Translations under genes and position numbers: made by a program
Shown: positions 3,638 through 49,073 of the stretch, piece by piece
Layout of the letters: each line of letters opens with the position of its first letter
Position numbering within the stretch: the first letter of the stretch is position 1
The notes under the pieces: model-generated
Seen by the model: the letters and a program-made list of their open reading frames with translations, nothing else
The model's database searches: none
What the model was told of the DNA's origin: nothing
From: a virus
Lineage: Duplodnaviria; Caudoviricetes
Virus record (IMG/VR): IMGVR_UViG_3300031867_000018
Location: 32,001-96,000 of that record
Length of the DNA stretch: 64,000 nt
Direction: 5' to 3' (one strand)

Positions 3638-6600
3638 ATGAATGACGATTTTAAAATTTCGTTAGTCGGGGTGTTAGATGCTGAAACAACAGCTAATAAT
3701 ATAAAGGGTAAATATGGCGAAGTAAAAGGAAAACTTCCAAATATCGAATTAATAGGACAACTTGATATCACTAATACAATAAACACAATAAATGGTCAAT
3801 TATCAGGAATAACACAACATTTACACTCGTTAAATATAAACGCTAATATCGCAGGTATAAATTTCAACTCGAGTCAGGTTCAGCAACAAGCAAGCGTTAT
3901 AGGTAATCAAATCAACAACGGTATATCACAAGGGGTAAACAGTGCCAATAATATACTTAACCAATTTGTAAATACTCTGCATAGTTACCGATGGAATGAT
4001 AACGAAATTCAAAATGCTGTTTCAGAAATAAACAGGCTTGCACAACAAACAGGGATAACAATAGCATCTTTGAGTCAATCAATATCGGAAGTTACGGGTA
4101 AAAAAGGAACAAAAAGAGTATTAGATGTTAGTGTTGAAGGTATAAATCAGCTCGGACAAGCAACTAAACTTGTAAGACAATGGGATTTGGATTCAGGAAA
4201 TTTAGTAAAAACAACCGACAATTTAAAATCGGGAGTTGTAGCAACTGCATCGGAAATGCAAAAATTAAGCGATCAAATTACAAAAGTCGCAAGTTCTTAC
4301 GAAAATAAAGTGGCAAAAATTAGAGCGAATGTTCAAATTGGGCAAAAACCTATTACACCTGCAATGTCAGCCGATTGGAGTCAAATTGAAAGTCAGATAA
4401 GTGCAATCAATAATGCAATTGGACAATTCCGAAACTCGACATCAGCTACTTTTGCGCAAAATGAAGCAGGTATAAAATCTTCGATAACTAACTTAGAGAT
4501 ATTAATAAAGGATTTGCAAAATGCAAGATATCAGGCAAGTGTACTCCGTGCCAATCCTGTTGAGGTATTAAGACAAGAAGCTATAGAAAAAGTTACGCAA
4601 TTCCGCAACGAATTGGAAAGAGCAAAAGGTGATGTAAGTCAGGTTAATAATGATTCTATACGATGGCTTGCTACCCTTAATAATGTTGGAGGGTTTAGAG
4701 TTACTGGAGCAGAAATCGTTGATATTCTCGACAATATCAAAGTCGCAAGAGAACGCTTGAATACATCGAATAAAAAAGAAGGTATAGATAATAGTCTCGA
4801 AAAAGTAAAGATTCAAGCACAAAGCCTATTGTCCGAAATAGAGAAATTAGAAAAGTCAAAAATAATACCTAACGGCTTTAAGATAGATGTTAATGGTGTA
4901 GAAAAAGGTTTAGAAAATATAAAAAATGAGATATCATTAATATCAAAAACTGGAAAAGGAGATTTATCTGTTTTATCTGCACAGTTTAGTCTTTTCAAGA
5001 AAGAGTTGTCTAAGATGGGTGGAAGTACAACAGCTAACACTAATTTTACAAATTCTATTAATCAATGGGTAACCGAAGCAAAAGGATCGATCAAGAATTT
5101 CGATGCTGTTTTCACTCAAACGATAGAACATATAAAAACTGAAGCGGCAAGTGCTGATAAGATCGCTTTAAGCAATCTTAAATCACAGTTTTCTGATTTG
5201 AAAAATGTATATTCATTTTTACAGAAAATGGAAAACAATACAATTGGTGCGACATTTACGCAAAAATCAGAACAACTCAAAAAATTCGGTAGCGATGGAG
5301 CTACTTCGCTTAACACATTAACGAAAGCCTATAATAGCTTGCAAACGGCAATACAGACAAATGACTTTGCAAAAATACAGGCAGCAATCAAAAATTATGA
5401 TACTGAATTGAAGAAAGCCACAAGTACGGTTAAGACTTTTACGGCACAGGGCAAGCAAATAAATAATATAGCCAATCAACGATTCTCCAATCAGATGGAA
5501 GAATGGCAAATAAAGAATACAAGAGCAGCAAAAGTTTTTGGAAACGAAATAAATCGTATACGGGGAGAGTTAAAAAATGCTGATAAAACCAAGCTGACAC
5601 AGTTAAGATTGCAATTTGATGCCGTACAGAAGTCGGCGAGAGAGATGGGTCTGTTGGGTAAGACATTTACGCAATCTTTTGTAGAAATGAGCAGTAAATT
5701 TGCCACTTGGTTCGGCGTTACATCTCTTATGGCACGAACTGTTATGTTGTTACGGTCAGCAGTAGAAGAGGTAAAGAATGTTGATAAGGCGATGACAGAA
5801 CTCTACCGAGTAACCGACTTAACAGCAAATGGTTATGAGAAATTATACACCAAGATAACTAAGTCGGCACAAGATTATGGTATAAAACTGGACAATCTTA
5901 TATCATCGACTGCAAGTTGGGTCAGGTTTGGTTTTGATACTGATACTGCGGAACAATTAGCTGAAATATCAGCAATGTATCAGCACGTTACAGATCTTGA
6001 CGAAAGTACAGCTGTTAAAAATCTGTTGACGGCATACAAAGGTTATCAAACACAATTGCTTGAGTTAACTGGCGGTGACGAAACGGCTGCGGTCGAACGG
6101 ATTGCAGACATATATGATAAGCTCGGTAACGAATTGCCGGTATCCGCTGCCCAAGTCGCAGAAGGTATGAACGAATGGGCAGCTATTGCTGCAGCTTCCA
6201 AAACAACATTTGAAGAAGCCACAGGTTTAATTGTTGGTGGTGGTTCAGTAACGCAAGATTTTACATCAATGGGTACTGCTTTAAAAATTGTAACCATGCG
6301 TTTGCAGGGGATGAAAGGAAAACTTCAAGAGTTGGGTGAAGAGGTCGATGAAAACATTGTCAGCACTTCCAAGATGCAAACCCAAATACTCAACTTAACA
6401 CATGGTAAAGTCAATATTTTCGAGACGGACGGTCAAACTTTCAGAAGCACATATGAAATCCTGAAGGATATATCCGCCATTCAAGAGGAATTGACAGACC
6501 CCGAAAGAGCAGAATTGCTCGAATTGATTGCTGGAAAAAATCGTGGTAATGCAATACAAAGTTTACTTGGCAATTGGCAGGAAGTCGAAAAGACTGTAAT

Positions 6601-28995: not shown

Positions 28996-29760
28996 TTACC
29001 TCCTACTTGTATATTCTCTATTCTTTCTTTGGCTATGTTGAAATAATGCTCGTCCAATTCGATACCGATGAAACGGCGGTTGAGCTTTTTGGCAGCTACA
29101 CCTGTACTGCCAGCCCCCCATATAATTATCAAGAACGATATTATTTTCTTTTGTATAGGTCTTGATTAAATATTCAAGTAATGACATAGGCTTTTCTGTC
29201 GGATGTAGTTTCTTTGCGGGTGTGCTGAATTGTAAAATAGATATAGGCATCTTATCTTCATATAATTTATAGTTGTTAGCTGTTTTGTATGTATGTAATA
29301 AGTTATTACTGCCATATATTTTCACATTTGCCTTGCGTGGAGTTTCTCTTTTCTCTTTGATTGGAAAATAATTTATTTTTACGCCGTTTTTTGTATAACA
29401 GGCTTTAGCTTTGCTGAACACCATTATATTTTCTTGAACTCTACCCGGCTGATAATTCATTAACTGAAAATTGCTTGGTTTTTGTTTTTGCCATACCCAA
29501 TCATACCTATACATTTCAAGGTTTGATGTTCTTAGTAAACTGCTGAATGGTTCTTGCCCGAAAAGTACGATACACGCATTATCTTTTATAATACGTTTGT
29601 ACTGATTCCACAATTGGTCAAAAGATATATTGCAATCCCACTTGCAAGCAGTTATTCCGTAAGGCGGATCGCATAGCACCAAATCAATCGACTTATCAGG
29701 TATCTTCTTCATCAGTTCAAGGCAATCGCCTTGCCATAATTCAATATTATTAATAAACAA
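28996..29760 (-). pseudogene. N6-A/N4-C DNA methyltransferase (beta class), frameshifted in G6 tract at 29114-29119
   Basis: DPPY, HPTEKP; removing one G restores DNYMGAGSTGVAAKKLNRRFIGIELD. Confidence 0.8.
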
Positions 29761-29811
29761 CGCCTCTCAATAATTTGTTATCAACACCTCAACATCTTTG
29801 CTGCGGTCTAT

Positions 29812-30627
29812 TTATTCTTCATTCTGTATCAACATCTTTTCGCTTGCTTGTTTGTAAAATTCCTTTGACACTTCAAATCCATAACAATCTCTACCTAATT
29901 CCTGACAAGCTCTCAATGTTGTACCTGAACCTGCTACGGGGTCAATTACAACATCTCCTTCGTCTGTAAAAATTTCAATCAGTTTCTTTAAAGTATTGAC
30001 AGGTTTCTGTGCAGGATGTATCTTTGGAATATCTTTGCCGTCTTTCTCCCAATTAAACCAGTTAAAAATCATTTTACCTGTACCTCTAATCGTTTTACCG
30101 TTTTCATCGGTCTGCGCACCGTTTCTGAATTTCGGCAGCTTATCACGGTACAGAATCAAAGCGTATTCTGTTGCTCCTACGACACGCATATTTGCTTTAA
30201 GCACCTGTGGACTGTAGTTTTTGATAAACACAAGTGGGATATTATGTTTAAATCCGTGTTTTTCGGCATATTTAATTACCATTGGCATTTGCTCAAAGGA
30301 ACAAAAAACTATCATACACGGTGCGTCACTGCTTCGACCTCTCGCACCTGCTTTTTTTGGTTCTTTCTTTAAAAGCCTGTTGCAGAAATGGAAGTATTCA
30401 GCGATATTGAAGTTAAAATCGGTGTTAAATGCTGCTTTGCCTGCTAATTTACTTTCACCATTCTTATTGTCTCCGCCGTTATACCACATAGGGTTACTGC
30501 CATAGAAGTTAGTTCCGACATTATAGGGAATGTCGGCGATTACAAGCTGCGCTCTTGGAATACCATATCTTTTGTAGTTCTGAAAATTATCGTTATAAAG
30601 TTTACATTTTGACATTTTGTTTTTCAC
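29812..30627 (-). CDS. N6-A/N4-C DNA methyltransferase (beta class)
   Basis: DIPY, HPAQKP, DPVAGSGTT. Confidence 0.9.
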   Translation of the reverse strand: MKNKMSKCKLYNDNFQNYKRYGIPRAQLVIADIPYNVGTNFYGSNPMWYNGGDNKNGESKLAGKAAFNTDFNFNIAEYFHFCNRLLKKEPKKAGARGRSSDAPCMIVFCSFEQMPMVIKYAEKHGFKHNIPLVFIKNYSPQVLKANMRVVGATEYALILYRDKLPKFRNGAQTDENGKTIRGTGKMIFNWFNWEKDGKDIPKIHPAQKPVNTLKKLIEIFTDEGDVVIDPVAGSGTTLRACQELGRDCYGFEVSKEFYKQASEKMLIQNEE

Positions 30628-30821
30628 TAGAAAGGCAGAAATTTCTCTTAGGTCGCGACACCTTTGTCCTTTCTTTAGAATTTATAAAATGAGATTTCTA
30701 TTCGGTCAATTATCAAACCGGAATTCTTTTGCAAATATCTCCAGTTGTTTCGTCAGGAAGTTTGGGTATTAACTTAATTTTGCCTGTATAAGAAACTATC
30801 TCACTCATTTTATGTACTCCT

Positions 30822-31577
30822 TTACTTTAAATTTGGGAATTGTGATTTCAACACATCTATAATATGAAATTGCTGAATTTTTCTCATAGCAATACAATTC
30901 AAATAACCTCGCCAATCAAAATTTGATAAATATTCTATTATTTCAGACTTCATATCTTCGTTATGTATCTTAATTTTATATTCTGCGGAATAATTCTCTC
31001 CGTCTTTTAATATCTTTCCTGCTGTTCCGTCACCCCAGTGACACATACGAATATCAAACTCTTTGTCAGCATATCCTTTACTATCTTGCCGATATATAGA
31101 TATGTCTTTGAGTTTTGCGGTTGGTTTCTTGTTTAATTCTCCCTGTACAGGTCTTCGATAAATATTAAAGCAACAATGTAATTCTCTGTCGGTGTAGGTA
31201 TGCTTGTCCAAATCTTCGCTATAAATCAAGTCAAACTCATACATTGAATGAGTATTGTTTAGTTGACTGATAGGAAGTATAAAAGCTATATAAATTGAAA
31301 ACGGCGGGTTTGTTACAATAATATCCCATTTGTCTGGCTGGTATGTAAAGAAATCTTGCCCTTCCTCTATACAACTTCTGACTACTTGATACCCCCCCAT
31401 TTTTAAACTGCGGTAAAAAGCCGACCACTCTGCATCACAAGGGCTCCAAATTATCTTGTCTTTTGGCAAATATTTTAAAATTGGTTCTACCGCATAATAT
31501 GGAGTGTACGATTCATCGGCTTTTGCAGATTTATCGCTGGTTAAATAGCCTATATTTAATGCCAATTTATCACTCAC
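30822..31577 (-). CDS. Adenine DNA methyltransferase-like protein, apparently chimeric, G7 tract in frame
   Basis: DESYTP, IIWSPCD, IVTNPPFS; G7 at 31392-31398. Confidence 0.65.
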   Translation of the reverse strand: MSDKLALNIGYLTSDKSAKADESYTPYYAVEPILKYLPKDKIIWSPCDAEWSAFYRSLKMGGYQVVRSCIEEGQDFFTYQPDKWDIIVTNPPFSIYIAFILPISQLNNTHSMYEFDLIYSEDLDKHTYTDRELHCCFNIYRRPVQGELNKKPTAKLKDISIYRQDSKGYADKEFDIRMCHWGDGTAGKILKDGENYSAEYKIKIHNEDMKSEIIEYLSNFDWRGYLNCIAMRKIQQFHIIDVLKSQFPNLK

Positions 31578-31594
31578 CTTACTTTTATCAGCAT

Positions 31595-32728
31595 TTATGA
31601 TATATGTTTATATTCTTCCTTTGTTTCAAAATCAGAATATTTCAAATCAAAATACTGCACTGCTAATTCTGGCATATCATTTTCGATCTGATTTACATAT
31701 CGTAAATAAGCACATTCTTTAATCGTTCTCTGCTGTAATACATCCACAAATTGTCTTAATGACTTTTTCTTAAAGAAACTCGGACTATTACACCAATTTG
31801 CCAAAAGAATATACATACCTCGATATGGTGATTCTTCATACCTGTTAAATCTCATTATGTACGGCAAACACTGATACTTCATAAGAAGCGCAATTCTTTT
31901 AAATAAATCCCACAAATCTTGTCTCCAAAAATCTAAGTCCCATTTATCGCTTCTATCAAAGCCACAAAACGTATAAAATTTAGGAACTTTATTGGTATAT
32001 TTACGGAGCATTATTAACTTCTTTTCTATAATTTTATAATCTGCAACATTATCAAAAGCGAAAATATAATCCCCGTCATATTTACTTTTGAATAGCAATT
32101 CACATTTTTCGTCTGTTAAAATCCTCTCGTCAAGACCTTGCTTGAATTGAAACGACTTACCTGTTGACTGTAACTCTAACAACATTTCTTTCCAATTATG
32201 ACAGCCTAAAAAATTATCATCCAGTAAACAAATCTTCTTTCTTGTTGGGTCAAGAAATTCAGATAATGAGCTGTGTTGCTCTACCCTTTTATAATTCCTG
32301 TTTACACAGAATTGGCATTGACGAAAACAGCCTCTTGTCATAAAACCTATTGAATAATCAAGATAGTATTTGAAGTCGATTCTTTTGCCGCCGTTGTCAA
32401 GTTTGGATTGTACCCACTCATCGTACAAATGATAATCGGGGAAATGATGTTCAATCTCATATGGAAGTTTCGGAGCTTTATCGTAATAAAACCCCGTTCC
32501 TCCATATTCAACATTTGGCAGAGTCAAGATATTTTCACCTATCGGTGTGTCGGTGAAAACTTTGGAGATAAAAACCTTATCATAGTCTTCGAGATTTTCG
32601 TAATCTGTTTTTAATTCGACTGAATGACCTTTTTCTTTATAGTAGCCCGAAAGTTTCAGGCACACTAAATTAGGAAATCTGTGTTTATTTCTGCCGATTA
32701 AATCAGCGTCTATTATTGCAATTCTCAT
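31595..32728 (-). CDS. Radical SAM protein
   Basis: TRGCFRQCQFC CxxxCxxC, FPNL...LSGYYK N-terminus, LLDDNFL. Confidence 0.85.
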   Translation of the reverse strand: MRIAIIDADLIGRNKHRFPNLVCLKLSGYYKEKGHSVELKTDYENLEDYDKVFISKVFTDTPIGENILTLPNVEYGGTGFYYDKAPKLPYEIEHHFPDYHLYDEWVQSKLDNGGKRIDFKYYLDYSIGFMTRGCFRQCQFCVNRNYKRVEQHSSLSEFLDPTRKKICLLDDNFLGCHNWKEMLLELQSTGKSFQFKQGLDERILTDEKCELLFKSKYDGDYIFAFDNVADYKIIEKKLIMLRKYTNKVPKFYTFCGFDRSDKWDLDFWRQDLWDLFKRIALLMKYQCLPYIMRFNRYEESPYRGMYILLANWCNSPSFFKKKSLRQFVDVLQQRTIKECAYLRYVNQIENDMPELAVQYFDLKYSDFETKEEYKHIS

Positions 32729-32825
32729 TCGCACCTGCCTTTTCTGCATTCCGATAAAATTCGCCTTTTATTTACTTTTTTAGGTCTTGAAACCCACTGT
32801 TTAAGCCACTTTCAGGTTTTGCATT

Positions 32826-33434
32826 TTAGCAATTCGCAATACTTTCAGTCTCTTTTCTCAAAATTTCTATTATTAGTCCAATTTCATTCTTTGAAAAGTA
32901 TGTAATGCCATGTTTTTCTTTAAATTTGTCAGCACGCTTGGCAGGGTTCCTTACCTCTGGAAAGTGACTTAATAAATCAATCATTTGTTTTCGGGTAAAG
33001 ATTGAATCTTTAAATCTCAATAAAAACATAGTTAAGTTTAAATAATTTCGTTCTTTTGCGGGTTTCTGAATATCGTTCTTATAAAGTAGTTCAAGGTGCT
33101 TGTTCTGCTCTATCTGCATATCATCAAAACACGCTTTTGCTCTATCGAGTCGTTTCACCCACTGTTTTAATATGCCAGTATTTAAGGGCATTACATTTTT
33201 AGAATTGTATTGTAAAGGCATATCACACCAAGCGGCTTTGGCAACAATATTAGTTAGTTTATGCTCTTTGGCTAAACAAAGCTGAAACATTCTGTTTAGT
33301 TTGAGAATATCATCAGGATTTATTAAATCGTGTTTTACTAATATATCATTTGTTTGATTTGCAAATTTTGAATATCCCAAAATAGTATTGCTACGTTTAT
33401 ACATTTGAATACTTCTCCCTGTTTGTAGTGTCAA
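32826..33434 (-). CDS. Hypothetical protein
   Basis: ORF coupled to neighbour by ATGA-type overlap. Confidence 0.5.
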   Translation of the reverse strand: MTLQTGRSIQMYKRSNTILGYSKFANQTNDILVKHDLINPDDILKLNRMFQLCLAKEHKLTNIVAKAAWCDMPLQYNSKNVMPLNTGILKQWVKRLDRAKACFDDMQIEQNKHLELLYKNDIQKPAKERNYLNLTMFLLRFKDSIFTRKQMIDLLSHFPEVRNPAKRADKFKEKHGITYFSKNEIGLIIEILRKETESIANC

Positions 33435-33871
33435 TCTTCGTACTCAACAAAGTGATTTTTGAATACACAACGACCAACTGAATCAGTTTCTCCATTGGTA
33501 AAAGCAGATGTCAATAGCTTAATCATATTGGCAACTTCTAACTGGCTAAATACTGCAATCCTCACTTCGTCTAATGGAAAATTGTCAAAAAAGGAATCTT
33601 GATATGTGTGATAAGTTGTTCTTTCTTTTTCTCTGTTAAGACTATGCCCGTATTTAGTTCTTACGTCTGGAAAAATATTCATCGCACAAAATCCGCCCAT
33701 TTCAGTAGGGTCTTCAACTCTGATATATAACCCCCCTTCAAATTCAGGTCGATATTCAACCTCTTCTTTTATGTGTTCATCATATTCAAGATAGTCGCTA
33801 TCTTCGGCAATCTTACAGAATACTGTTCCCATTGGTACGTTTCTTAATTCATCTCTTGTTATTATTTTCAT
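33431..33871 (-). CDS. Hypothetical phage protein
   Basis: MKIITRDEL start after GGAGG RBS. Confidence 0.55.
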   Translation of the reverse strand: MKIITRDELRNVPMGTVFCKIAEDSDYLEYDEHIKEEVEYRPEFEGGLYIRVEDPTEMGGFCAMNIFPDVRTKYGHSLNREKERTTYHTYQDSFFDNFPLDEVRIAVFSQLEVANMIKLLTSAFTNGETDSVGRCVFKNHFVEYED

Positions 33872-33872
33872 T

Positions 33873-34604
33873 TTATACCTCCGTTTTATAATTGCATTTA
33901 TGTACAAAAAGTTTCTCAACAACCTTAAATTGATTATTTTTGTTTCTGTCAAGCGTTCTTGTAAATGGTTTTTCCCAAATTGCAACAAAATCATCGGGAG
34001 CTTCAAGCTCGGAAATAAACATTTGATGTTTTTGACTTGTCTGTCTTGCGTACTCCCAAAATTCTTCGCTGTTAAATTTGGCTGTTGTATAACCTGTCGT
34101 GTTGTTGTATGGTGGGTCTGCATATATCACGCAATTTTCGGGTAATCCTACATCTCTATAGTCTTTACAGATAAATTCAGCATGCGACATTTTAGATAGT
34201 ATCTTTAAGGTGCTGTTTTTGCTTTCTTGATAATGACTTCTTTCACTGCCGTCATATTTTTTGCTATGTCCATACCCGCCAAACCATTTACCTCCAAAAG
34301 AACAAGCAAATCCAACAAAACCTGTCAATACTGGATCGTCATCTTTATGGTTTTTAATATACTTATATTCTTCTTCTGAAAAATCAGTAGGGAGTTTATA
34401 TCCGTGCTGTATTCCGTTTAATGCTTGTATTAAATAATAGTGATTATCATTACATATAACCCTATCAAATTTTGGGGCTAATTCACTTTCGACTGAGCAA
34501 GCCCCACAGAACAAACTTACGAAAGTCGTATTACTCTCTCTCTCTCTCTCGATTGCTTGCGCAATCGACTTCGCTATTCTGCTCTTTCCTCCTTGGAATC
34601 GGAT
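33873..34604 (-). CDS. Dam/D12-class N6-adenine methyltransferase; ATC start; in-frame (GA)8 repeat
   Basis: (M)RFQGGKSRIAK, SLFCGACSVE, SFGGKWFGGY, IYADPPY; GAGGTG RBS; in-frame TGA just upstream rules out a canonical start. Confidence 0.85.
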   Translation of the reverse strand: MRFQGGKSRIAKSIAQAIERERESNTTFVSLFCGACSVESELAPKFDRVICNDNHYYLIQALNGIQHGYKLPTDFSEEEYKYIKNHKDDDPVLTGFVGFACSFGGKWFGGYGHSKKYDGSERSHYQESKNSTLKILSKMSHAEFICKDYRDVGLPENCVIYADPPYNNTTGYTTAKFNSEEFWEYARQTSQKHQMFISELEAPDDFVAIWEKPFTRTLDRNKNNQFKVVEKLFVHKCNYKTEV

Positions 34605-34656: not shown

Positions 34657-37600
34657 TTATCCTATAATGGTATAATCCCACAAATACCAATAACCTTTGT
34701 TGTTTTTATTAAGCTGTGCTGCATAAATAATATCAAGTTTATTTATTGGTTTTGCGTTGTAAATAAATGATTTGACGGTGAGTGCAGCAGTCTTTCCTGA
34801 CCCAACGGATTTGGTTTGTATTCGATATGCCCACGGTTCCGATGAATCTTTGCTTTTCAGCGGGAAAACATTAATTATTATCAGCTTACGAATATCTTCT
34901 TTTTTATTGGTTGTGAGATTTATAAAACCCAACATTTCCTGCTGATATTTTATTCTCTCTTTGAATGGGATTGCAGGATATTCTTTTGCTTTTACATTTG
35001 ATTCAAGTGCTTTTATCAAGCCGTCCATATCGGCTATTTTATAGTTTGTTCCTTCGCTGCCGTCTTTGTTTTTGTCGGTGGCGTAAAGTTTTAATATCGG
35101 TTCAATCTTCAATTTTTGAGCTTTATCTTTTTTTATTTGTTTAGCTTTACCAAACTTTACAATTTCGTAAGCGTTAAGCATATGAATCAATTCGTTGGAG
35201 TTTCCAAAATCCGAGAAAAAGTCAAATTTAGTAAGTATTTCGGTTTGCTTTTTACTGACACCTTGATCTAAGAGACTTGTTACAAGTTTGTAGAAATTAT
35301 CAAAATGGCGGTTTCTTATGTTATATAAAACATCTCCCATTTGCCTGTTACAATCCTTAATTAACGGTATTCCATATAATATTGCGCCGTTATCTACCGT
35401 ACATTTTCTATGGTCTTGCTTGTAATCAAACGCTTTTATCGGTATATTGTGATTATCTGCATCACCAAGTATTTCTGCGGCGTGTTCTGCCACAAAATCA
35501 CTTTTACCCAAAAACGAATTACATAGTCCCGCATAAAATTCGGCAGGATAATATGCTTTTTGTTTAGCAGTCATATAAGAAATGATGCCGTAAGCAGAAG
35601 AGTGAGAATTAGATACGACTATTCCGTTATTAGCAAGAAAATTATGTGCAGGATCGGACATTGCAATGTCGTATGTCATTTCTTCCCGCATAGGTGTAAT
35701 AGACTTGATTGTATCTATTTCAGTCGGAATACCGTTTTCATACGCTTTTGTTCTGCCTGCAATATACACTTGGTCTCCCACGTTTAAATCCGAAAGCATT
35801 TTATACCCCTTTGGAGTGGGAAATTTATGATTATCCGTACATTCGATCCACTTGCCTGTCGCTGTAACAAGTTTATATACAGTTCTTATACCCGCTTGCT
35901 GAATATCGACAATGTAGTTTTTACGAATACAACCATCCGAAAACATTGATAAGGCGTTACCGTAACCGTTTCTTAAAAATTTAGACCGTAAAGGAACATA
36001 GTTGTTTTTCTTAGCGTACTCTACATCGTTCATTATCAAGTACATTTCTTCTACTGTGGGATGTCTCTTATTTTTTGTTTGCCCTACTCGCATAAGTTTT
36101 GTTGAACCAGCAACACATTTATTGAAACTATAGGAAGCAAAAGCTATCATATCGCTCCATAGTTTTGAAAACTGTTCATCAGTCCAGCCTCTTTTTTTGA
36201 GTTTTTCTTCAAGTTCGGGTTTGACTTGATTAAGCAGCTTAGGATTTTTCTTGCCTGTCGCTTTTCTTAAAAGGTCGGGATTATGTAGCCCTGCAAGCCT
36301 GCCAATTTCTATAAGCTGTTCCTGAAAGACAATAATGCCGTATGTTGCTTTTAATATCGGCTCTAAATCGGGATGCAGATATTCAAATTGTTCTTCGCCA
36401 TTTCTTCGTTTGCAAAAGTTATCTATATACGCCAATGCACCGGGTCGGAAAAGAGCATTTGCGATAGATATATCTTCAATACCCGATACATTCATTTTTT
36501 TAAGAGTCTGCTTCATACCGCTTGAAGCCATCTGAAATATACCCACTGTATCACCGTTTCTAAAAACATCAAGAACTTTTGGGTCTGTATAGTCTTGTTT
36601 TGGGTTTAAAAAATCCTTGGATTCGTGTGACATTTGAAGAGTATCAAACTCTTGGTCTATGGTTCTGAGTCCAAGTAAGTCGATTTTTACAAGTCCGACA
36701 TCTTCAACATCGTGCATATCGCCCTGTAAATATCTGATTCCAGATTCGTCATAATTTGAGGGTAAAAATTCATCTAATTCTCTTGTTGATATGATTTTGC
36801 CGCAACTATGAAGTCCAAAAGATTTAGGCAATCCGTTTAATTTGCGGACATAATCAAACAACTCTTCATAGGTTTGGACATAATATATCGCTTCGTCTGC
36901 TGCTTTTTCTCGTGGTATATCACCGTTAAGCATATTATCAATATCGGATAATTCATACTCACCAAATGATTTTGCGATTCTGTCTGCGGTTTGCAAGTCT
37001 ATATCCAATACCTTGCACATATCACGAATAGTACCTTTAGTTTGGTTTGTGCCGAATTTACCGATAGACGCAACCTTGTCTTCTCCGTACTTATTGTAAA
37101 GATATTGCAAGACTTGTTCACAGCAATCTCCACTGAAGTCAAGATCAATATCCGGAACTTTAAGTTCTTTTGCGGTAATTTCTCCCGATTTTAACAAGTC
37201 AAGTGCCGCCACATCAATAAATCGTTCAAAATACAAACCGTGTTCTATGGGGTCAATGTCGGTAATATTTGTGACATAGTTGATAATGGAACCACCGCCC
37301 GAGCCTCTTGCTATGCCTCGCCTATCTGCTACATTTGCATAAGAATATACAAGCAGGATATAGTCTATAAAGCCCATTTCATCAAGAGCATTTAATTCGT
37401 ATAGGTATCTGTCTATATAAGTATTTATTGTTTCGGGAGAAAGAAAACTCTCTTCATACCCCAAAAATTCTCCTGTTTCGGGGTTGGTTATTTTACTGAA
37501 TATCTTACGTTCAGGGTCTTGTAAAGTTCTATCTTTTACATTAATGTTTAGTTTTGTTTTAAACCCTTCTTCACAAAGATATTCAAGCCATTCTCTGTTT

Positions 37601-38469
37601 GTTTTAAACTGTGGCGGAGTATCTACCTTTGGCATAATCGGAGCAGACAGTGGCATTTCAACATTACATTTATCTGCGATGATATGAGTATTATTTATGA
37701 CTGTATTGATAAAAGTATCGTCAAAATAGTCAAGATTTTCTCTGACCTCCTGTTCAGACTGCACATAACAATCCTTATAGGATTCGCCTTGTTCTTTATA
37801 AGCTCCGTTAAATGCGTATTTACTTTGATATTTAGCATCGTTTTTATAAAGATAATGCGCATCCGTAGTAACTACGCACGGAATACCAAGTTTTTCAGCT
37901 ATCTGTTTGATTTTCTTATTGACCTCTATTTGAGTTTCTTCACGTCTTGCTTGAATTTCAAGGTAATAATCTTCTCCGAAACGATATTTGTATTTGTTGG
38001 CTATTGCCATTGCTTTTTCAGCGTCCTGCTGCATTATTGCCCTGCTGACTTCTCCCGCAAGACAAGCACTTGTTATAATCAGTCCGTCTCCGTATGTTGA
38101 AAGCATATCAAAGTCGATCCTTGGTTTTTTATATTTGTTTTCGGGTCTGCCCGACAGGGATATAAGTTTATTTAAGTTAAGCCTGCCGGTTTCGTTTTTG
38201 CATAAGGCTATAAGATGATAATATTTATTGTCCTTATCTTTTATTTTTACATCATCACAAATATAAAATTCGCAGCCGTGGATATATTTAATATTATTGT
38301 TTTTTAGCAGTTTGTAGATACTGACACCACCGAGGGAATTGCCGTGGTCAGTAATAGCCACGGCATTCTGATTTAATTCCTTTAAGCGTTCAGCAAGTTC
38401 TTCAGGACGAATAATACTGTCCCTTAATGAAAACATAGAGTGTAAATGTAAATGTATTATTTGGATCAC
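34657..38469 (-). CDS. dnaE: DNA polymerase III alpha subunit with intein
   Basis: PHP motifs HLHLHS/AITDHG/TTDAH, RGSGGGS, FERFI, PDIDLD, KIDLLGL. Confidence 0.95.
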   Translation of the reverse strand: MIQIIHLHLHSMFSLRDSIIRPEELAERLKELNQNAVAITDHGNSLGGVSIYKLLKNNNIKYIHGCEFYICDDVKIKDKDNKYYHLIALCKNETGRLNLNKLISLSGRPENKYKKPRIDFDMLSTYGDGLIITSACLAGEVSRAIMQQDAEKAMAIANKYKYRFGEDYYLEIQARREETQIEVNKKIKQIAEKLGIPCVVTTDAHYLYKNDAKYQSKYAFNGAYKEQGESYKDCYVQSEQEVRENLDYFDDTFINTVINNTHIIADKCNVEMPLSAPIMPKVDTPPQFKTNREWLEYLCEEGFKTKLNINVKDRTLQDPERKIFSKITNPETGEFLGYEESFLSPETINTYIDRYLYELNALDEMGFIDYILLVYSYANVADRRGIARGSGGGSIINYVTNITDIDPIEHGLYFERFIDVAALDLLKSGEITAKELKVPDIDLDFSGDCCEQVLQYLYNKYGEDKVASIGKFGTNQTKGTIRDMCKVLDIDLQTADRIAKSFGEYELSDIDNMLNGDIPREKAADEAIYYVQTYEELFDYVRKLNGLPKSFGLHSCGKIISTRELDEFLPSNYDESGIRYLQGDMHDVEDVGLVKIDLLGLRTIDQEFDTLQMSHESKDFLNPKQDYTDPKVLDVFRNGDTVGIFQMASSGMKQTLKKMNVSGIEDISIANALFRPGALAYIDNFCKRRNGEEQFEYLHPDLEPILKATYGIIVFQEQLIEIGRLAGLHNPDLLRKATGKKNPKLLNQVKPELEEKLKKRGWTDEQFSKLWSDMIAFASYSFNKCVAGSTKLMRVGQTKNKRHPTVEEMYLIMNDVEYAKKNNYVPLRSKFLRNGYGNALSMFSDGCIRKNYIVDIQQAGIRTVYKLVTATGKWIECTDNHKFPTPKGYKMLSDLNVGDQVYIAGRTKAYENGIPTEIDTIKSITPMREEMTYDIAMSDPAHNFLANNGIVVSNSHSSAYGIISYMTAKQKAYYPAEFYAGLCNSFLGKSDFVAEHAAEILGDADNHNIPIKAFDYKQDHRKCTVDNGAILYGIPLIKDCNRQMGDVLYNIRNRHFDNFYKLVTSLLDQGVSKKQTEILTKFDFFSDFGNSNELIHMLNAYEIVKFGKAKQIKKDKAQKLKIEPILKLYATDKNKDGSEGTNYKIADMDGLIKALESNVKAKEYPAIPFKERIKYQQEMLGFINLTTNKKEDIRKLIIINVFPLKSKDSSEPWAYRIQTKSVGSGKTAALTVKSFIYNAKPINKLDIIYAAQLNKNNKGYWYLWDYTIIG
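35608..36117 (-). mobile_element. 170-aa mini-intein in DnaE
   Basis: FNK|CVAGST...CTDNHKF...TYDI..HNFLANNGIVVSN|SHS; no endonuclease domain. Confidence 0.9.
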
Positions 38470-43083: not shown

Positions 43084-44349
43084 TTATACGAGATTAACCC
43101 GTAACGGGTGTAAACCTACACCCTCTATCCCGTCCGCAAACGCATTCGGGAATACTTTTTTCATTATCTGATAACTGCCGTTTACATCGGCATTTATTTC
43201 TGTTCCATTATTAGATACGAACAAACCTCTATGTACTCTCCTTGACTTATTATAGTTTGCTTCTATTGGCAATTCTTCATCAAGAAAACTTGTACCGCTG
43301 GTGTAACTTTCTTCGGTTTGTTTAAATATAATGCCTGCATTTTCACATTTATAAGCTAACCGAGATACAATACTTAAATATGGTATTTGTGTAAACTTTT
43401 GATTGTTTTGTTTACCTATATCGGAATTTTGTTTCCAGCCTATGTTATATCCGCAAACCAAAGTATCAATATTATGTTCTATGCAGAAGTCAATAACTTG
43501 TTTTGTTGCTTTGTGAATATAGTTGTCTACTTTGCGATTACGCTTTGCCGTAAAATTCTTCATACGATTAGACCAATCTTTGCCGTTGTTTTTCTTTAAT
43601 TCGGAACGCATTTGAGCGATCTGTTTATTATAATATTGGTTTATTGACTTCAAAGGTCTGCCGTTTATTACAAAAGGGTCTGTACCGCAGTTCGTTGTTA
43701 TGGTCATTAAGTTATCTACTCCTAAATCAATAGAAGCTATGCGGCTTGATGTATTGTTTGTTTCGGGTATACCTATTTCGTAAACCACTTCCATTTTATA
43801 TTCTCCGTTTTGCGGGACAAAGCGTATTTGCATGAGCTTTGCGGTGTTTGGGATTTTGGTTTTAAAAATATTATTCATCACTTTCAGCGGTTTCCACGAA
43901 AAATAAATGTAATTATCTTTGACTTTAAATTGATTATTGGCTAAAATCAAAATATAACGTCCGTTTTCCTTGTTGAGGTATTTTGGCATTTTAGGTCTTC
44001 CCGAATATTTTGAGGGATTTTTGCCGTAATCTTTAATGGAAGTGAAAAACGCTTTCCAATTTCTGTCCAAAACACGCAAAGTTTGTTGCCCACATGTTGA
44101 CCCAATGTCTTTATATGGTTCTGAATCTTTTACAATTTTACATAGTTCATAGTATTTTATCCAAACCGCATTTTCTCTTAACCCGTTTTCTTTTTCTTTC
44201 GAGGTTTTTATAAATTCTTGTCGGATAATATAGTTACCATAGTTATATATGTTTTTTGATTTCCAACTAAATTTATCAATTAAAGAAAAATATGGGTTTG
44301 ATGATTTTATGCGATGAGATTCTATTCTATTGGCTTTCAAATTTATCAC
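43084..44349 (-). CDS. tnpB: TnpB-family RuvC nuclease (no Zn finger, rearranged RuvC-II), CRISPR-adjacent
   Basis: SKNIYN..NY.IRQ, ASIDLGVDN, VCGYN.GWKQ, TEESYTS, INADVNG; likely start TTG at 44340. Confidence 0.88.
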   Translation of the reverse strand: MINLKANRIESHRIKSSNPYFSLIDKFSWKSKNIYNYGNYIIRQEFIKTSKEKENGLRENAVWIKYYELCKIVKDSEPYKDIGSTCGQQTLRVLDRNWKAFFTSIKDYGKNPSKYSGRPKMPKYLNKENGRYILILANNQFKVKDNYIYFSWKPLKVMNNIFKTKIPNTAKLMQIRFVPQNGEYKMEVVYEIGIPETNNTSSRIASIDLGVDNLMTITTNCGTDPFVINGRPLKSINQYYNKQIAQMRSELKKNNGKDWSNRMKNFTAKRNRKVDNYIHKATKQVIDFCIEHNIDTLVCGYNIGWKQNSDIGKQNNQKFTQIPYLSIVSRLAYKCENAGIIFKQTEESYTSGTSFLDEELPIEANYNKSRRVHRGLFVSNNGTEINADVNGSYQIMKKVFPNAFADGIEGVGLHPLRVNLV

Positions 44350-45603: not shown

Positions 45604-46005
45604 TTAAGCATTGGAGATTACCTTTTTATTAACTGTTAATTCCAATAACAAATTATCTTTTGTGACCGAGGTTAGTGTGTTGCAATAACCATCTAACCTC
45701 GGTTCAAGTTGCTGCTTGGTTTTATTTTTTTCTGTATATCGTCCTCGCATTGCGACACAAATAGTATCACAGGAGTGTAACCGCCTCCCATTCCCATTGC
45801 GGCAGTTAGACAAGGACAGATCCCGGTTGTTATCCATTTTTGATGTTCTTGATACCCGTTTCTTATAGCTATGATTTCTTTCATTTAATCACCTTTGGTA
45901 GGTTCCCGTGAAATTCCGATACGATTGTCGGAGAATAACCTACCGTTATTTGCGGAGATTTATTTTTTTTGCCTTTATCGTTTATGCAGACATTCTGATA
46001 TTTAC
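45604..46005 (-). CDS. Three downstream C5-MTase TRD-like mini-ORFs
   Basis: YSPTIVSEFHGNLPKV, CPCLTAAMGMGGGYTP and CNTLTSVTKDNL modules in overlapping frames. Confidence 0.7.
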
Positions 46006-46516
46006 TTAGTCTGCCTGCGGCTGAGTAAAATTTTCGGCTTCAATATCTCCCGATTCTATATATTCAAAAATTCGGTCTAACCCCGATTCAAAAGCACCGA
46101 TACCCGAAAAATAGCTGCCGACTTTTAAATCGTCAAAAAGATATGGCATAGCTTTATAGAGTTCTTTAAATATGTAGTAAAGTACGTCTACCACGATAGA
46201 ATTTCCTGCTTGCTTATACAACTGCGTTGAAGATACGCCTGCCGACTGTGCGGCTTCAAAATCCTCATCATCAAACCCCATAAGCCGCCAACATTCTTTT
46301 GGTGTGAGTTTGCGGATGCGGTAGTTTTCGGCTACATTCTCCGATTCTTCAATACGGCAAAGACCGTTGCTCTCTGCGGTTATTGTCGGGCAAGTATCTC
46401 CGTTATCCTGTACTCTACCTCGTCTTGTTTTGCTGTTTGGATATGACAAATCTGCCACCCCCCCCTATTTTACATTCAATATATCCTTTTTTGGTTGCTT
46501 GTTTAATTTTTGCCAT
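46006..46516 (-). CDS. C5-cytosine methyltransferase small subunit (TRD + motifs IX, X, I); G8 tract at 46458-46465 out of frame
   Basis: IRKLTPKECWRLMGF, YKQAGNSIV, GSYFSGIGAFE; ATG at 46516 joins in frame if the tract is G7. Confidence 0.85.
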
Positions 46517-47389
46517 CTTTGTCAACTACCAACAACCCCGTCCTTTCAGCTCTTAGAGAAGGAGCGTATTCATCATAAATCCTTATCGGTCTATGATTAT
46601 ATATTGCGTCTATAATTACTATAGATTTACTTTGTTTTGTTTGCATATTGTACCACCACAAAAGGCTGTCTATTGCCGCCTTGCATTGTACCGAGAGTGG
46701 GCGATACCCCCCCTATTTCATAAACTCTGCCTTGATTTGGATTATCTCTTGTTTTAGATTTGAAGAGATTACCTATCTGTTTTACTTGATTCATATATCC
46801 ACCGTTCGATTATAAAAGGCTGCAAATTCCCACCAGCCGCCATATTTGTGAGAGTGGGCGATACCCCCCCCCGACCGAATATATACTGCGACTTTGGGAT
46901 TTTACTCCTTGTTTTGTATTGCCTAATTTTACTACTTTGCTTTCTGTCATTTTGTTACCATAACCTTTGGTGGGTCTTTATAACAGGTAGAAGATATACA
47001 TTGTACGATACCTTCTACTGAATATACCCTGCTTTTTTGATCTGAGCCGATTTCACCTAATTGTATCAATTTGTTATTTGTCATTTTTTCACCACGATTT
47101 TTGGTGGGTCTTTATACTGTGAAGACGGCAAGGTTGCCATGATTCCTTCCGTAGAATAAATCCAGCCTTGCTGCCCCCCTGTTCCTCGATGTATCAAGCG
47201 TATTACTTTATTCTCCATTTTGTTTTACCTTTACGATTATCATAGGTTTATTACCCCCCCCCCACTCATAGTTACGATGGTCGGGGAATATCCATTTATT
47301 GAATATATTGCTCCCCGACCATTGCCACCTATATTTTTGGGGTTGAAGTACGCATCGCCTAATTTTACTGCTTTGTTGTATTCTTGCAC
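46503..47389 (-). CDS. Array of six TRD-like mini-ORFs (47389-47208, 47218-47081, 47084-46947, 46950-46769, 46794-46627, 46646-46503)
   Basis: Each 45-60 codons with own start, SD-like sequence and stop; shared K(L/I)G..(R/I)(V/I)YS..G..PTL...P pattern. Confidence 0.8.
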
Positions 47390-48276
47390 TCTACCACTCC
47401 ATTCATCGGTTGATTTCCGAAACCTTTGTAGTCTCTTGCTAACAAAGTATTTGCAAACTCTGTTTGATTTTCAAATTGACTGCCTTGCTTGGAGATCAGT
47501 CCTGTGATTTGGTCTGTACCATATCCCACTGATGACGGTCTAAGCTTCCTCTCCCCCCTACGGACGGAATTGGAATATTCTTTATCCAGCTTTCCGCTGT
47601 CGAGCAGGTCTTGGATAAGCTGTTTTGCTTTGTCGGTGTTGACATAAAATTTCTCGTCAACTTCATCTTCCAACATATCTCTCAAACGGAGACCGTTGTC
47701 GAAAGGTTCGGGAAATTTGAATTTGCCGTTGTCAAGTTCTTTTTTGATAAAGATAAGATAAACACGTTCTCTGTTTTGAGGTACACCGTAATCTTTAGCG
47801 TTCAATACTTTGTAATGACAGTTATAGCCGTACTCCGTCAATTCATCTATGAACATTTGGAATGTATCTTTGAATTTTTTCCCGACAAGGTTTTTGACGT
47901 TTTCATATATGCCCCAAGACGGTTTATTGTATCTTATAATTCGCAATGCTTCAACCAAGAGAGAACTTCTTGTTTTTGATATGTTCTCACTGCTACATTT
48001 CGGACATTTATCTCTTTTATCGAAATGTACGGTAAGAGGATTCCATTCGGATTTACAGTCTTCGCAAGTCCATACTGAGCCGTTTTGACCTCCTGCTATG
48101 CTGAAATCCTGACAAGGACTGCCAAAACACATAAAGTTGAACGGTTCTAACTTTGTTTCGTCAACATCGTTAATATCGCCTAAATTTTTACTCTCGTCTA
48201 CATTGTGAACCGCACAATAGCTTTTTACGGCATATTTATCAAATTCACAAAAATTTACTAATTCGTATTTTTTCAT
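47365..48276 (-). CDS. C5-cytosine methyltransferase large subunit (motifs II-VIII, no motif I) with Zn-ribbon insert
   Basis: NFCEFDKYA, GSPCQDFS, YENVKNL, YGVPQNRERVY; CEDC/CPKC insert. Confidence 0.9.
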   Translation of the reverse strand: MKKYELVNFCEFDKYAVKSYCAVHNVDESKNLGDINDVDETKLEPFNFMCFGSPCQDFSIAGGQNGSVWTCEDCKSEWNPLTVHFDKRDKCPKCSSENISKTRSSLLVEALRIIRYNKPSWGIYENVKNLVGKKFKDTFQMFIDELTEYGYNCHYKVLNAKDYGVPQNRERVYLIFIKKELDNGKFKFPEPFDNGLRLRDMLEDEVDEKFYVNTDKAKQLIQDLLDSGKLDKEYSNSVRRGERKLRPSSVGYGTDQITGLISKQGSQFENQTEFANTLLARDYKGFGNQPMNGVVECKNTTKQ

Positions 48277-48336: not shown

Positions 48337-49073
48337 TTAATGTATTTCTAAATATTTACTCCACTGTTCACCCATTGCCTTAGCAATACCGGGAAATGTT
48401 TTGCTTCTTGCTTTACCTCTATTTCCATCAAAATCTCTAACCATAAATTCATCAAAGGTAACAGTTTTGCCATTTTTGCATTTGTATTGAATCAAAGTTG
48501 GTTCAACTACATCAGTTGGCACAAGTAATGGCAAACCTTTTAACCACAAACATGTTGTTTTTTTGTGTGGATCGCCAAACATATATGGTTGAATAATCTG
48601 TTCAGGTTTTCTTACAAATTTAGAATATGCAGGAAAATATTTTTCAAGATACGCACCACCCGACATTATGCCGATAGGGTTTTCGACTGCAATGTGTTCG
48701 CAATTTGCATTTAAAAAATTGAGAAAGAATTTAATAGATTCTTCTTGGTTGCCGTTATTTCTCTTGTTTTCAAAATGCCTTGCACCAGATACAGCTAAAT
48801 CTGTGCAAGGTGGGTGTGCAATAATCAAATCCCATTTGCCGTCTATCCTATGTGCTTCTCCGTCCATTGTTTTAAAGACGATACCATAAAACATACTGCT
48901 GATTTGGTGCGGATTTAAAACTTCAAGGACATCGCCAAGTATATGCCATTCAGGATGCCCCCGCTGGGTTTTTGAATATCACAACTGTACGCTTCGTGTC
49001 CTAATTCACGAAAAGCTGCACACACTCGCTGGCTTTCTTCGCAAGCTACTAAAACTTTTAACGATTTTGTCAT
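48337..49073 (-). pseudogene. Phage-type cytosine methyltransferase-like protein, frameshifted in G5 tract at 48958-48962
   Basis: KVLVACEESQRV..SCDI, IAHPPCT, AVENP, KTTCLWL, RSKTFPGIAKAM; adding one G restores SGGHPEWHI. Confidence 0.8.

Follow-up and report, generated by a model that had tools for sequence, protein, structure and literature searches.

A phage C5 cytosine methyltransferase locus with a split, circularly permuted core and target-recognition modules mostly in separate cistrons, several of them bearing poly-G

The stretch of viral DNA considered here, referred to as the window, is 64,000 nucleotides (nt) long and corresponds to positions 32,001 to 96,000 of the IMG/VR record IMGVR_UViG_3300031867_000018 (Duplodnaviria; Caudoviricetes). 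On its minus strand, positions 45604-48276 carry what is, judging from its sequence relationships, a C5 cytosine methyltransferase locus of the multispecific lineage of the Bacillus phages SPR and phi3T. In this lineage the core of the enzyme comes in two pieces, an N-part with motifs II-VIII and a C-part with motifs IX, X, and I, and the array of target-recognition domains (TRDs) between the two parts is an operon-like row of overlapping small cistrons. Six coding-strand runs of G6 to G10 are present, all of them inside TRD modules. There is good reason for confidence that the locus is a phase-variable, split, multi-cistron enzyme, which is predicted to form 5-methylcytosine. As a whole, it is best explained as the anti-restriction C5 methyltransferase of a temperate phage of gut/rumen Clostridia, with its ancestry among the multispecific enzymes of SPR, phi3T, and SPbeta, and we assign this explanation, including the mechanism proposed below, a probability of roughly 0.55. 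An original prediction, made from the sequence alone, had described the TRDs as an array of separate mini-genes, several of which are gated by poly-G tracts. Inspection of frames and open reading frames (ORFs) reproduced the ORFs, peptides, and G-runs on which it was built, and the present analysis adds to it a circular permutation of the core, a -1 frameshift signal, and a C-part that is switched off in the window consensus.

Both core parts match the PF00145 profile (157 bits for the N-part and 59 bits for the C-part, with a cut-off of 22), and motifs I, IV (PCQ), VI (ENV), VIII (QxRxR), IX, and X were all found. They do not follow the canonical I-to-X order in one polypeptide; instead, the order is II-VIII, TRDs, and IX-X-I over at least two ORFs, with motif I at the C-terminal end of the second. 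The characterised relatives nearest to the core are the Bacillus phage multispecific enzymes M.SPRI, M.Phi3TI, M.Rho11sI, and M.H2I, with 32-36% identity in the N-part and 71-75% in the motif IX-X region. Since the N-part aligns with these enzymes from their residue 26/27 onward and the motif I segment of the C-part aligns with their N-terminal residues 4-38, the core is, on the evidence of these alignments, circularly permuted, with motif I after motif X and the breakpoint between motifs I and II. Full-length relatives (430-645 amino acids, aa) have the permuted order too and carry 2-7 TRDs in a single chain. In the window, as in M.AquI, the motifs are distributed over two ORFs with the break within the variable region, and the N-part and C-part would reassemble as the two pieces of that enzyme do.

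Twelve TRD-like modules were counted in, between, and after the core parts (TRD0-TRD8 and dn1-dn3; Table 1), close to the number first estimated, and eleven of them have relatives in other loci or in Bacillus phage enzymes. Nine precede motif IX, standing in tandem in the variable region, and three follow motif I; the TRDs and the core are not united in a single polypeptide. TRD0 and TRD1 are alternative frames at the end of the N-part, TRD2-TRD7 are separate ORFs, and TRD8 is joined to the C-part. TRD2 has the weakest match (36-49% identity, E about 3e-4 to 5e-4). TRD6 is 61% identical to a TRD of M.H2I over 28 aa, its match in M.Phi3TI being 64% over 22 aa, and the TRD7 type sits in relatives in the frameshift extension behind motif I. 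The modules keep protein-level conservation despite near-saturated synonymous sites: the ratio of nonsynonymous to synonymous change (pN/pS) is mostly 0.1-0.55 (up to 0.67 for TRD2), values that carry a downward ascertainment bias as they were computed from the best protein matches, and it is 0.17-0.20 for the core. Within one group of 90-97% identical sequences, our sum over modules gave 18 synonymous to 22 nonsynonymous differences in the module frames versus about 16 to 61 off-frame, the counts per module being too small to stand alone.

To place the locus among its relatives, it was compared with about 220 related loci; viral contigs and metagenomes were each sampled for 80 loci and species genomes for 79. 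Counts of continuous and fragmented loci refer to the first 160 (viral contigs and metagenomes) plus the window. A single uninterrupted ORF spans motif II to motif I in 113 loci, all of which lack runs of G6 or longer, while 32 of the 33 fragmented loci (some of them the same contig present in two collections) have such runs. For 26 fragmented loci, no combination of +1/-1 edits at tracts of G5 or longer yields a single ORF, which supports the earlier view that the enzyme is truly split. The best N-part obtainable by such editing mostly ends a few residues past the TRD1 motif (ANTLLARDYKGFGNQ.MNGV), and in a few loci at TRD0 or earlier. In a rapidly built tree of the N-core, loci with the fragmented state group together (6 changes versus about 20 in shuffles), and supported branches force at least two gains or losses of it. 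The split poly-G design is also found on prophages of cultured isolates, namely Ruminococcus sp. YE282, Dysosmobacter segnis BX15, Hominicoprocola fusiformis CLA-AA-H269, and Clostridiaceae strain 9 (loci L166, L178, L179, and L216). A DNA-level search of the phage collection returned just short core matches, and no relative nearer than 75% came out of a metagenome scan.

Seven modules have a start codon of their own (GTG for TRD2, ATG for TRD3-TRD8), each at or overlapping the preceding stop, with ATGA overlaps between TRD3 and TRD4, between TRD4 and TRD5, and between dn1 and dn2. Shine-Dalgarno (SD) pairing at the seven starts ranges from -3.1 to -6.7 kcal/mol (TRD2 being the strongest), and six of them reach -4.0 kcal/mol or lower, which only 18% of internal ATGs do; the medians are -1.5 kcal/mol for the window's internal ATGs and -8.1 kcal/mol for real gene starts. 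The dn2 start has an energy of -6.9 kcal/mol. Similar signals occur in relatives, where 14 of 19 module starts have an SD energy of -4.9 kcal/mol or better, one module of L001 is preceded by AAGGAGG-N6-TTG, and a stand-alone TRD cistron behind motif I in L178 and L216 has a GGAGG at -10.7 kcal/mol. Fragmented loci have a Met no more than 10 aa ahead of the recognisable module N-boundary in 33 of 40 distinct contexts, and continuous loci in 3 of 44. The comparison with homologous loci thus revealed module starts conserved in the fragmented lineages, together with mosaic module sets, and most modules do appear to be separate cistrons, as had been proposed, with specificity modules encoded behind start signals of their own.

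The junctions between TRD3 and TRD4 and between TRD4 and TRD5 are copies of one 134-nt unit that carries the ATGA overlap; the junction unit (repeat D1) recurs at a spacing of 134 nt, which three does not divide. Another metagenome yielded P0123, an ORF of 58 aa that begins and ends like the window's modules. No terminator-like site turned up when the coding strand of the array was scanned. Whichever frame is read after the G10 and G9 tracts, it stops before the next start or a few codons past it; because every frame ends near the next cistron start, a slip in one module would truncate that module, leave the ribosome beside the following start, and need not prevent the next module from being translated.

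The G-runs are concentrated in the locus to an unusual degree. In a window with 34% G+C, six of the ten G/C runs of 6 or longer fall in the 2.7-kb locus (binomial P about 1e-6), as do all runs of 8 or longer. The five runs listed in the original prediction are present as given, with G7 in frame and G10, G9, and G8 out of frame; a sixth, the in-frame G6 in TRD3, had been overlooked. Poly-G tracts in TRD coding sequence change length far faster than the remaining sequence, as read from pairs of close relatives. Orthologous tracts with near-identical flanks have lengths of 7/9/12, 7/8/9, 5/6/7, and 7/7/10, the last set being the window's G10 and an orthologous G7 with the same flanks in L001 and L017. 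Over 4496 nt, L005 and L086 differ by one mismatch and one indel (G12 versus G11); over 4041 nt, L082 and L104 have four mismatches and, in G or C tracts without exception, four indels, two of them of 2 bases; and L178 and L216 differ in one tract (G7 versus G9). Some of these differences, where the metagenome assemblies are of low coverage, could reflect sequencing error. With in-gene homopolymers that are enriched and that differ in length between close genomes while their flanks are conserved, the locus resembles known phase-variable loci, and the proposal that the G-runs are hypermutable switches is well supported. A coding-strand poly-C tract (AAAGAT-C8/C7-A), located in the KDPP segment of a module, is likewise of unequal length in the near-identical phages L082 and L104.

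Of the 58 tracts that could be scored unambiguously, 27 keep the frame, and the rest show no direction bias, with 18 calling for -1 and 13 for +1. The tracts are not a by-product of coding, since in 101 continuous relatives GGG is a rare glycine codon (10.7% of the total) and GGGGGG is not used for any of 409 Gly-Gly pairs.

The first tract (G6 in the N-part tail) is, from its reading frames, a three-way selector: the present length gives TRD1, one base more gives TRD0, and the third phase leads to an early stop with no TRD. The earlier suggestion that the length of this tract sets the ending of the N-part is therefore borne out, in an extended form. All three phases occur in the nearest relatives (TRD1 in P0002, TRD0 in P0022, and none in P0015), and among the fragmented loci TRD1, TRD0, and no TRD stand at about 12:9:10 by our reading of ORF ends. 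The last tract (G8) gates TRD8 and the C-part, and hence probably the whole enzyme.

A conserved signal behind motif I would lead, by -1 frameshifting, into further TRDs. In 89 of 112 distinct loci, the stop that ends the motif I tail is preceded at a distance of 25 nt by the heptamer A_AAT_TTY in frame; past this stop, the -1 frame is open for at least 40 codons in 76 of the 112 and the +1 frame in just 1. In the -1 frame come one or two additional TRDs, whose types vary; one is homologous to an internal TRD of M.Rho11sI and M.H2I. In the window, dn1 is reachable only via the frameshift, and an equal layout is present in 76 of the 112 loci. A 10-bp stem-loop with the stop in its loop follows 5-6 nt past the heptamer in relatives (for example, L022:6644-6700 and L004:6538-6600). 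The stem pairs in 89.6% of cells over 23 distinct sequences, versus 40-47% with slid partners, and eight of its ten pairs have changed on both sides. Folding is best in L022 (-18.9 kcal/mol, z -5.8), and the window's own stem is weak (-10.1 kcal/mol, z -1.6). Heptamer, spacer, and structure are thus all present, and the -1 ORF is conserved as coding and naturally fused in frame in L030 and L011. On these sequence features, the modules behind motif I in the window represent the local version of a feature seen across the family, and TRDs of this family evidently function, or at least persist, when attached outside the position between motifs VIII and IX.

The arrangement of cistrons and tracts suggests how the parts could work together. 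The free TRD peptides may act in trans as specificity subunits, a proposal to which we give somewhat less than even odds: they would dock between the N-part and the C-part, each giving one methylation specificity, and each tract on its own would turn one specificity on or off. The first tract would pick among two tails or none and the last would gate the whole enzyme, so that a phage population would hold many methylome states. The main arguments for action in trans are indirect, namely the switching logic of cistrons and tracts and the co-occurrence of tracts and module starts in the same lineages. Independent switching requires the cistron structure, because in a single chain a slip would also lose motifs IX, X, and I. 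In its fullest form, which has to be put a shade more tentatively still, the proposal is that interchangeable TRD peptides of 45-60 aa, each switched by its own poly-G tract, serve in trans a split and permuted core to which the -1 frameshift adds further TRDs, and that dozens of methylomes are sampled stochastically. Methylation blocks some restriction enzymes, while methyl-dependent nucleases attack methylated DNA. A plausible benefit would be a bet-hedge between two kinds of host, those with restriction enzymes that a given methylation blocks and those with methyl-dependent nucleases that this methylation attracts.

Several observations weigh against this mechanism. The SD signals of the window's modules are just moderate and are partly a by-product of conserved Val-Val codons (GTGGTG) at module ends, and some modules of relatives have no recognisable start, such as TRD2 in L001. 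In the window, dn3 lies in a different frame from dn2, and its module boundary carries no separate start. One module of L017 contains an in-frame stop, which indicates that not every module is maintained. Finally, the C-part is out of frame at G8 in the window consensus and lacks a proper start, and the enzyme is probably off as assembled.

The strongest rival reading is that of a two-subunit enzyme similar to M.AquI, in which only the attached TRDs (TRD0/TRD1, TRD8, and dn1 by frameshift) work and the middle modules are a store of silent cassettes that feeds recombination. We consider it unlikely. Modules have exact or near-exact repeats in common at tracts and junctions (D1, 61 nt; D2, 21 nt), close relatives are mosaics with differing module sets, and module types shift among internal, C-terminal, and stand-alone positions. 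L002 corresponds to L001 with 92 nt lost from between two poly-G tracts, so that two half-modules are fused (recombination at locus coordinates of about 6450-6545), and P0123 combines the first half of TRD5 with the second half of TRD6, joined at the common 21-nt repeat. The poly-G tracts may serve also as joints for module shuffling. However, silent cassettes need neither starts nor SD sites nor hypermutable tracts, whereas Met starts are specific to the fragmented lineages, most module starts are preceded by an SD-like sequence, and long unbroken G-runs are kept in free modules although GGG is a rare glycine codon.

It is improbable that recoding fuses the modules so that they act in cis, by transcriptional slippage at the G-runs together with ribosomal frameshifting or slippage at A-rich ATGA junctions. 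The family already has a -1 frameshifting signal behind motif I, and at two of the ATGA junctions there is a preceding A4-A6 run, so that slipping by -1 ahead of the stop would carry translation into the next module. Long homopolymers can promote polymerase slippage, which the G9-G12 runs could do here. Yet a single chain would take seven or more such events, the shifts required at the window's junctions are of mixed direction (three -1 and four +1), and most junctions have no slippery heptamer or downstream structure. Re-initiation fits better at the several junctions that overlap by 8-25 nt, in which the start lies upstream of the stop.

A decaying pseudogene array, in which a dead multispecific methyltransferase is gaining frameshifts and stops, is less probable still. 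Three of the six consensus tracts are out of frame, including the gate of the C-part, dn3 lacks a start, and one L017 module has a nonsense codon. Against this, the architecture recurs in the 33 fragmented loci and again in further loci from genome assemblies, the fragmented loci occupy at least two tree positions split by supported branches, and the stop past TRD1 lies at the same place throughout. Protein conservation of modules with saturated synonymous sites and the conservation of Met starts and tracts are likewise not expected of decay.

The possibility that one true ORF has been broken by miscalled homopolymers is slight indeed and is refuted for the junctions: frame breaks do occur at error-prone long G-runs and some related contigs are of low coverage, but tract edits restored one ORF in 0 of 26 loci, seven window junctions are not at homopolymers, the out-of-frame tracts need corrections both ways, isolate genomes share the layout, and the assembly is not generally indel-ridden, since ORFs of 2435, 1270, and 1192 aa elsewhere in the window are intact despite many A/T runs of 6-9. 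Two further ideas were rejected. An alternative genetic code with TGA as sense meets more stops, and under table 11 the long ORFs in other places are uninterrupted. The idea that long G-runs are systematically called too short does not agree with the differing directions needed by the window's three off tracts or with the 18 tracts that need -1 and the 13 that need +1 across loci.

Taken singly, the ingredients of the locus are known: arrays of TRDs in multispecific enzymes, C5 enzymes that are split, others that are permuted, and methyltransferases that vary in phase through poly-G. The classic demonstration of C5 modularity came from the multispecific methyltransferases of phages, and phase-variable methyltransferases are a classic case of bacterial bet-hedging. 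The Bacillus phage enzymes (M.SPRI, M.Phi3TI/SPbeta MtbP, M.Rho11sI, and M.H2I) have in common with the window's enzyme a homologous core, tandem TRDs between motifs VIII and IX, a Zn-ribbon insert of the phi3T type, and some TRD types (TRD6 with a phi3T/H2 TRD and, weakly, TRD1 with an SPR TRD); both are phage-borne and presumed to serve self-protection against restriction. However, the Bacillus enzymes are single chains that run from motif I to motif X with 2-4 TRDs, no simple-sequence tracts, and no frameshift extension, whereas in the window motif I is at the C-terminal end, the core lies in two ORFs, and most TRDs are separate cistrons, with six modules bearing poly-G.

M.AquI (alpha and beta) likewise has its catalytic motifs on two polypeptides with the break in the variable region, and split C5 methyltransferase halves are known to reassemble (PMC5944983, PMC3404938). 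Unlike the window's locus, M.AquI consists of two pieces with one specificity and has no free TRD-only peptides, and no natural C5 enzyme of three or more pieces was described in the literature searched. In M.BssHII, M.Alw26I, M2.Eco31I, and others, motif X stands ahead of motif I, as it does here, but only variable-region breakpoints have been reported for natural C5 permutations (PMC5944983), in contrast to the breakpoint between motifs I and II in the window. Homopolymer slippage also switches the Type III mod phasevarions and the Type IIG enzyme cj0031, for which poly-G phase variation has been described (PMC4889913), with tracts that are polymorphic in close relatives as they are here; C-terminal sequence switching at homopolymers has been reported as well (PMC2823697). 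These systems are cellular genes in which one tract switches the whole enzyme or one tail, whereas the window's locus belongs to a phage enzyme with up to six tracts, each in a different, cistron-insulated specificity module. In HsdS of Type I systems, specificity is encoded apart from catalysis and phase-variable TRD shuffling is known, but neither the protein family nor the enzyme class of HsdS is related to those of the window's enzyme, HsdS is part of a defined complex, and the likeness would lie in the proposed mode of action only.

In an incomplete literature search, whose coverage left out most subscription journals, including the original papers of the Trautner group, no description was found of the combination, of TRD tracts within cistrons, of the permutation between motifs I and II, or of the frameshift extension. 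The locus would unite two classic themes in a virus, the specificity modules having been turned into individually switchable cistrons around a split, permuted core. If action in trans is true, C5 methyltransferases gain a specificity-subunit mode like that of Type I systems, phages of gut/rumen Clostridia match the restriction landscape of their hosts combinatorially, heritably, and reversibly, and the small modules amount to a natural toolkit for programmable cytosine methylation. The presence of the design in cultured isolates provides directly testable experimental systems.

Table 1. Features of the C5 methyltransferase locus, in window coordinates.
Feature	Position	Strand	Remarks
N-part ORF, 303 aa	47365-48276	-	ATG 48276; motifs II-VIII, without motif I; garbled TRD0, then TRD1 in present phase
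N-part motif II	48261-48229	-	motif search
N-part motif IV (PCQ)	48123-48100	-	motif search
N-part Zn-ribbon insert	48066-47995	-	motif search
N-part motif VI (ENV)	47907-47887	-	motif search
N-part motif VIII (QNRER)	47778-47761	-	motif search
TRD0	47496-47570	-	alternative frame, stop 47496-98; GGRGSLDRHQWDM type; 17 loci at 71-88% identity; pN/pS about 0.3
Tract 1, G6	47553-47558	-	N-part tail; TRD1 phase at present
TRD1 core	47454-47389	-	N-part tail in present phase
TRD2 cistron	47208-47389	-	GTG 47389, 25-nt overlap with N-part end; in-frame version stops at 47208
G10 in TRD2	47254-47263	-	off (stop 47240); +1 or -2 needed
TRD3 cistron, 45 aa	47081-47218	-	ATG; 71% identity to module in L018/L019
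G6 in TRD3	47174-47179	-	in frame (on)
TRD4 cistron, 45 aa	46947-47084	-	ATG; no tract; ATGA overlaps at both ends
TRD5 cistron	46769-46950	-	ATG; exact 21-nt repeat (D2) in common with TRD6
G9 in TRD5	46864-46872	-	off; +1 or -2 needed
TRD6 cistron, 55 aa	46627-46794	-	ATG; matches in 70 loci
G7 in TRD6	46707-46713	-	in frame (on)
TRD7 cistron, 47 aa	46503-46646	-	ATG; no tract
C-part with TRD8	46006-46516	-	ATG 46516 opens TRD8; motifs IX, X, I; 152-aa open frame 46464-46006
G8 in TRD8/C-part	46458-46465	-	off; -1 or +2 needed
C-part motif IX	46320-46273	-	motif search
C-part motif X	46218-46180	-	motif search
C-part motif I (FSGIGAF)	46113-46087	-	motif search
-1 frameshift signal	45985-46033	-	heptamer A_AAT_TTT 46033-46027 in zero frame, 8-nt spacer, stem-loop; zero-frame stop in loop
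dn1	45881-46039	-	no start, -1 frame of C-part tail; no tract; 83% identity over 36 aa to L032 extension
dn2 cistron	45693-45884	-	ATG, ATGA overlap onto dn1 stop; no tract; 51% identity to internal module of L013
dn3	45604-45780	-	VAMRGRY...QQLE...NTLTSV..KDN type; no tract; 70% identity to second extension module of L010

Two relatives contain selfish insertions: in L016, an HNH-endonuclease ORF in a different frame lies between motifs IX and X (L016:6488-7096), and P0002 has an intein (Hint-domain matches) at the catalytic PC motif. Directly upstream of the locus in the window, a second methyltransferase-like gene on the minus strand (48337-49073) has a PPC motif and no Pfam match; it is divided into two ORFs exactly at a G5 (48958-48962), and one base fewer would join them. 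More DNA methyltransferase genes are located at 28996-34550, comprising two of the N6_N4 type, one EcoRI-methylase-like gene, and a D12/Dam-like gene made up of two ORFs that overlap. Outside the locus the window has four G/C runs of 6-7, and three of them (C6 at 29114, C7 at 31392, and C6 at 33731) are inside the methyltransferase ORFs of this region. A DNA polymerase III alpha gene (34657-38469) has a weak match to an intein-splicing domain at residues 849-954, and a TnpB gene (43084-44349; OrfB_IS605 and Cas12f-like TNB) is situated about 1.3 kb downstream of the array.

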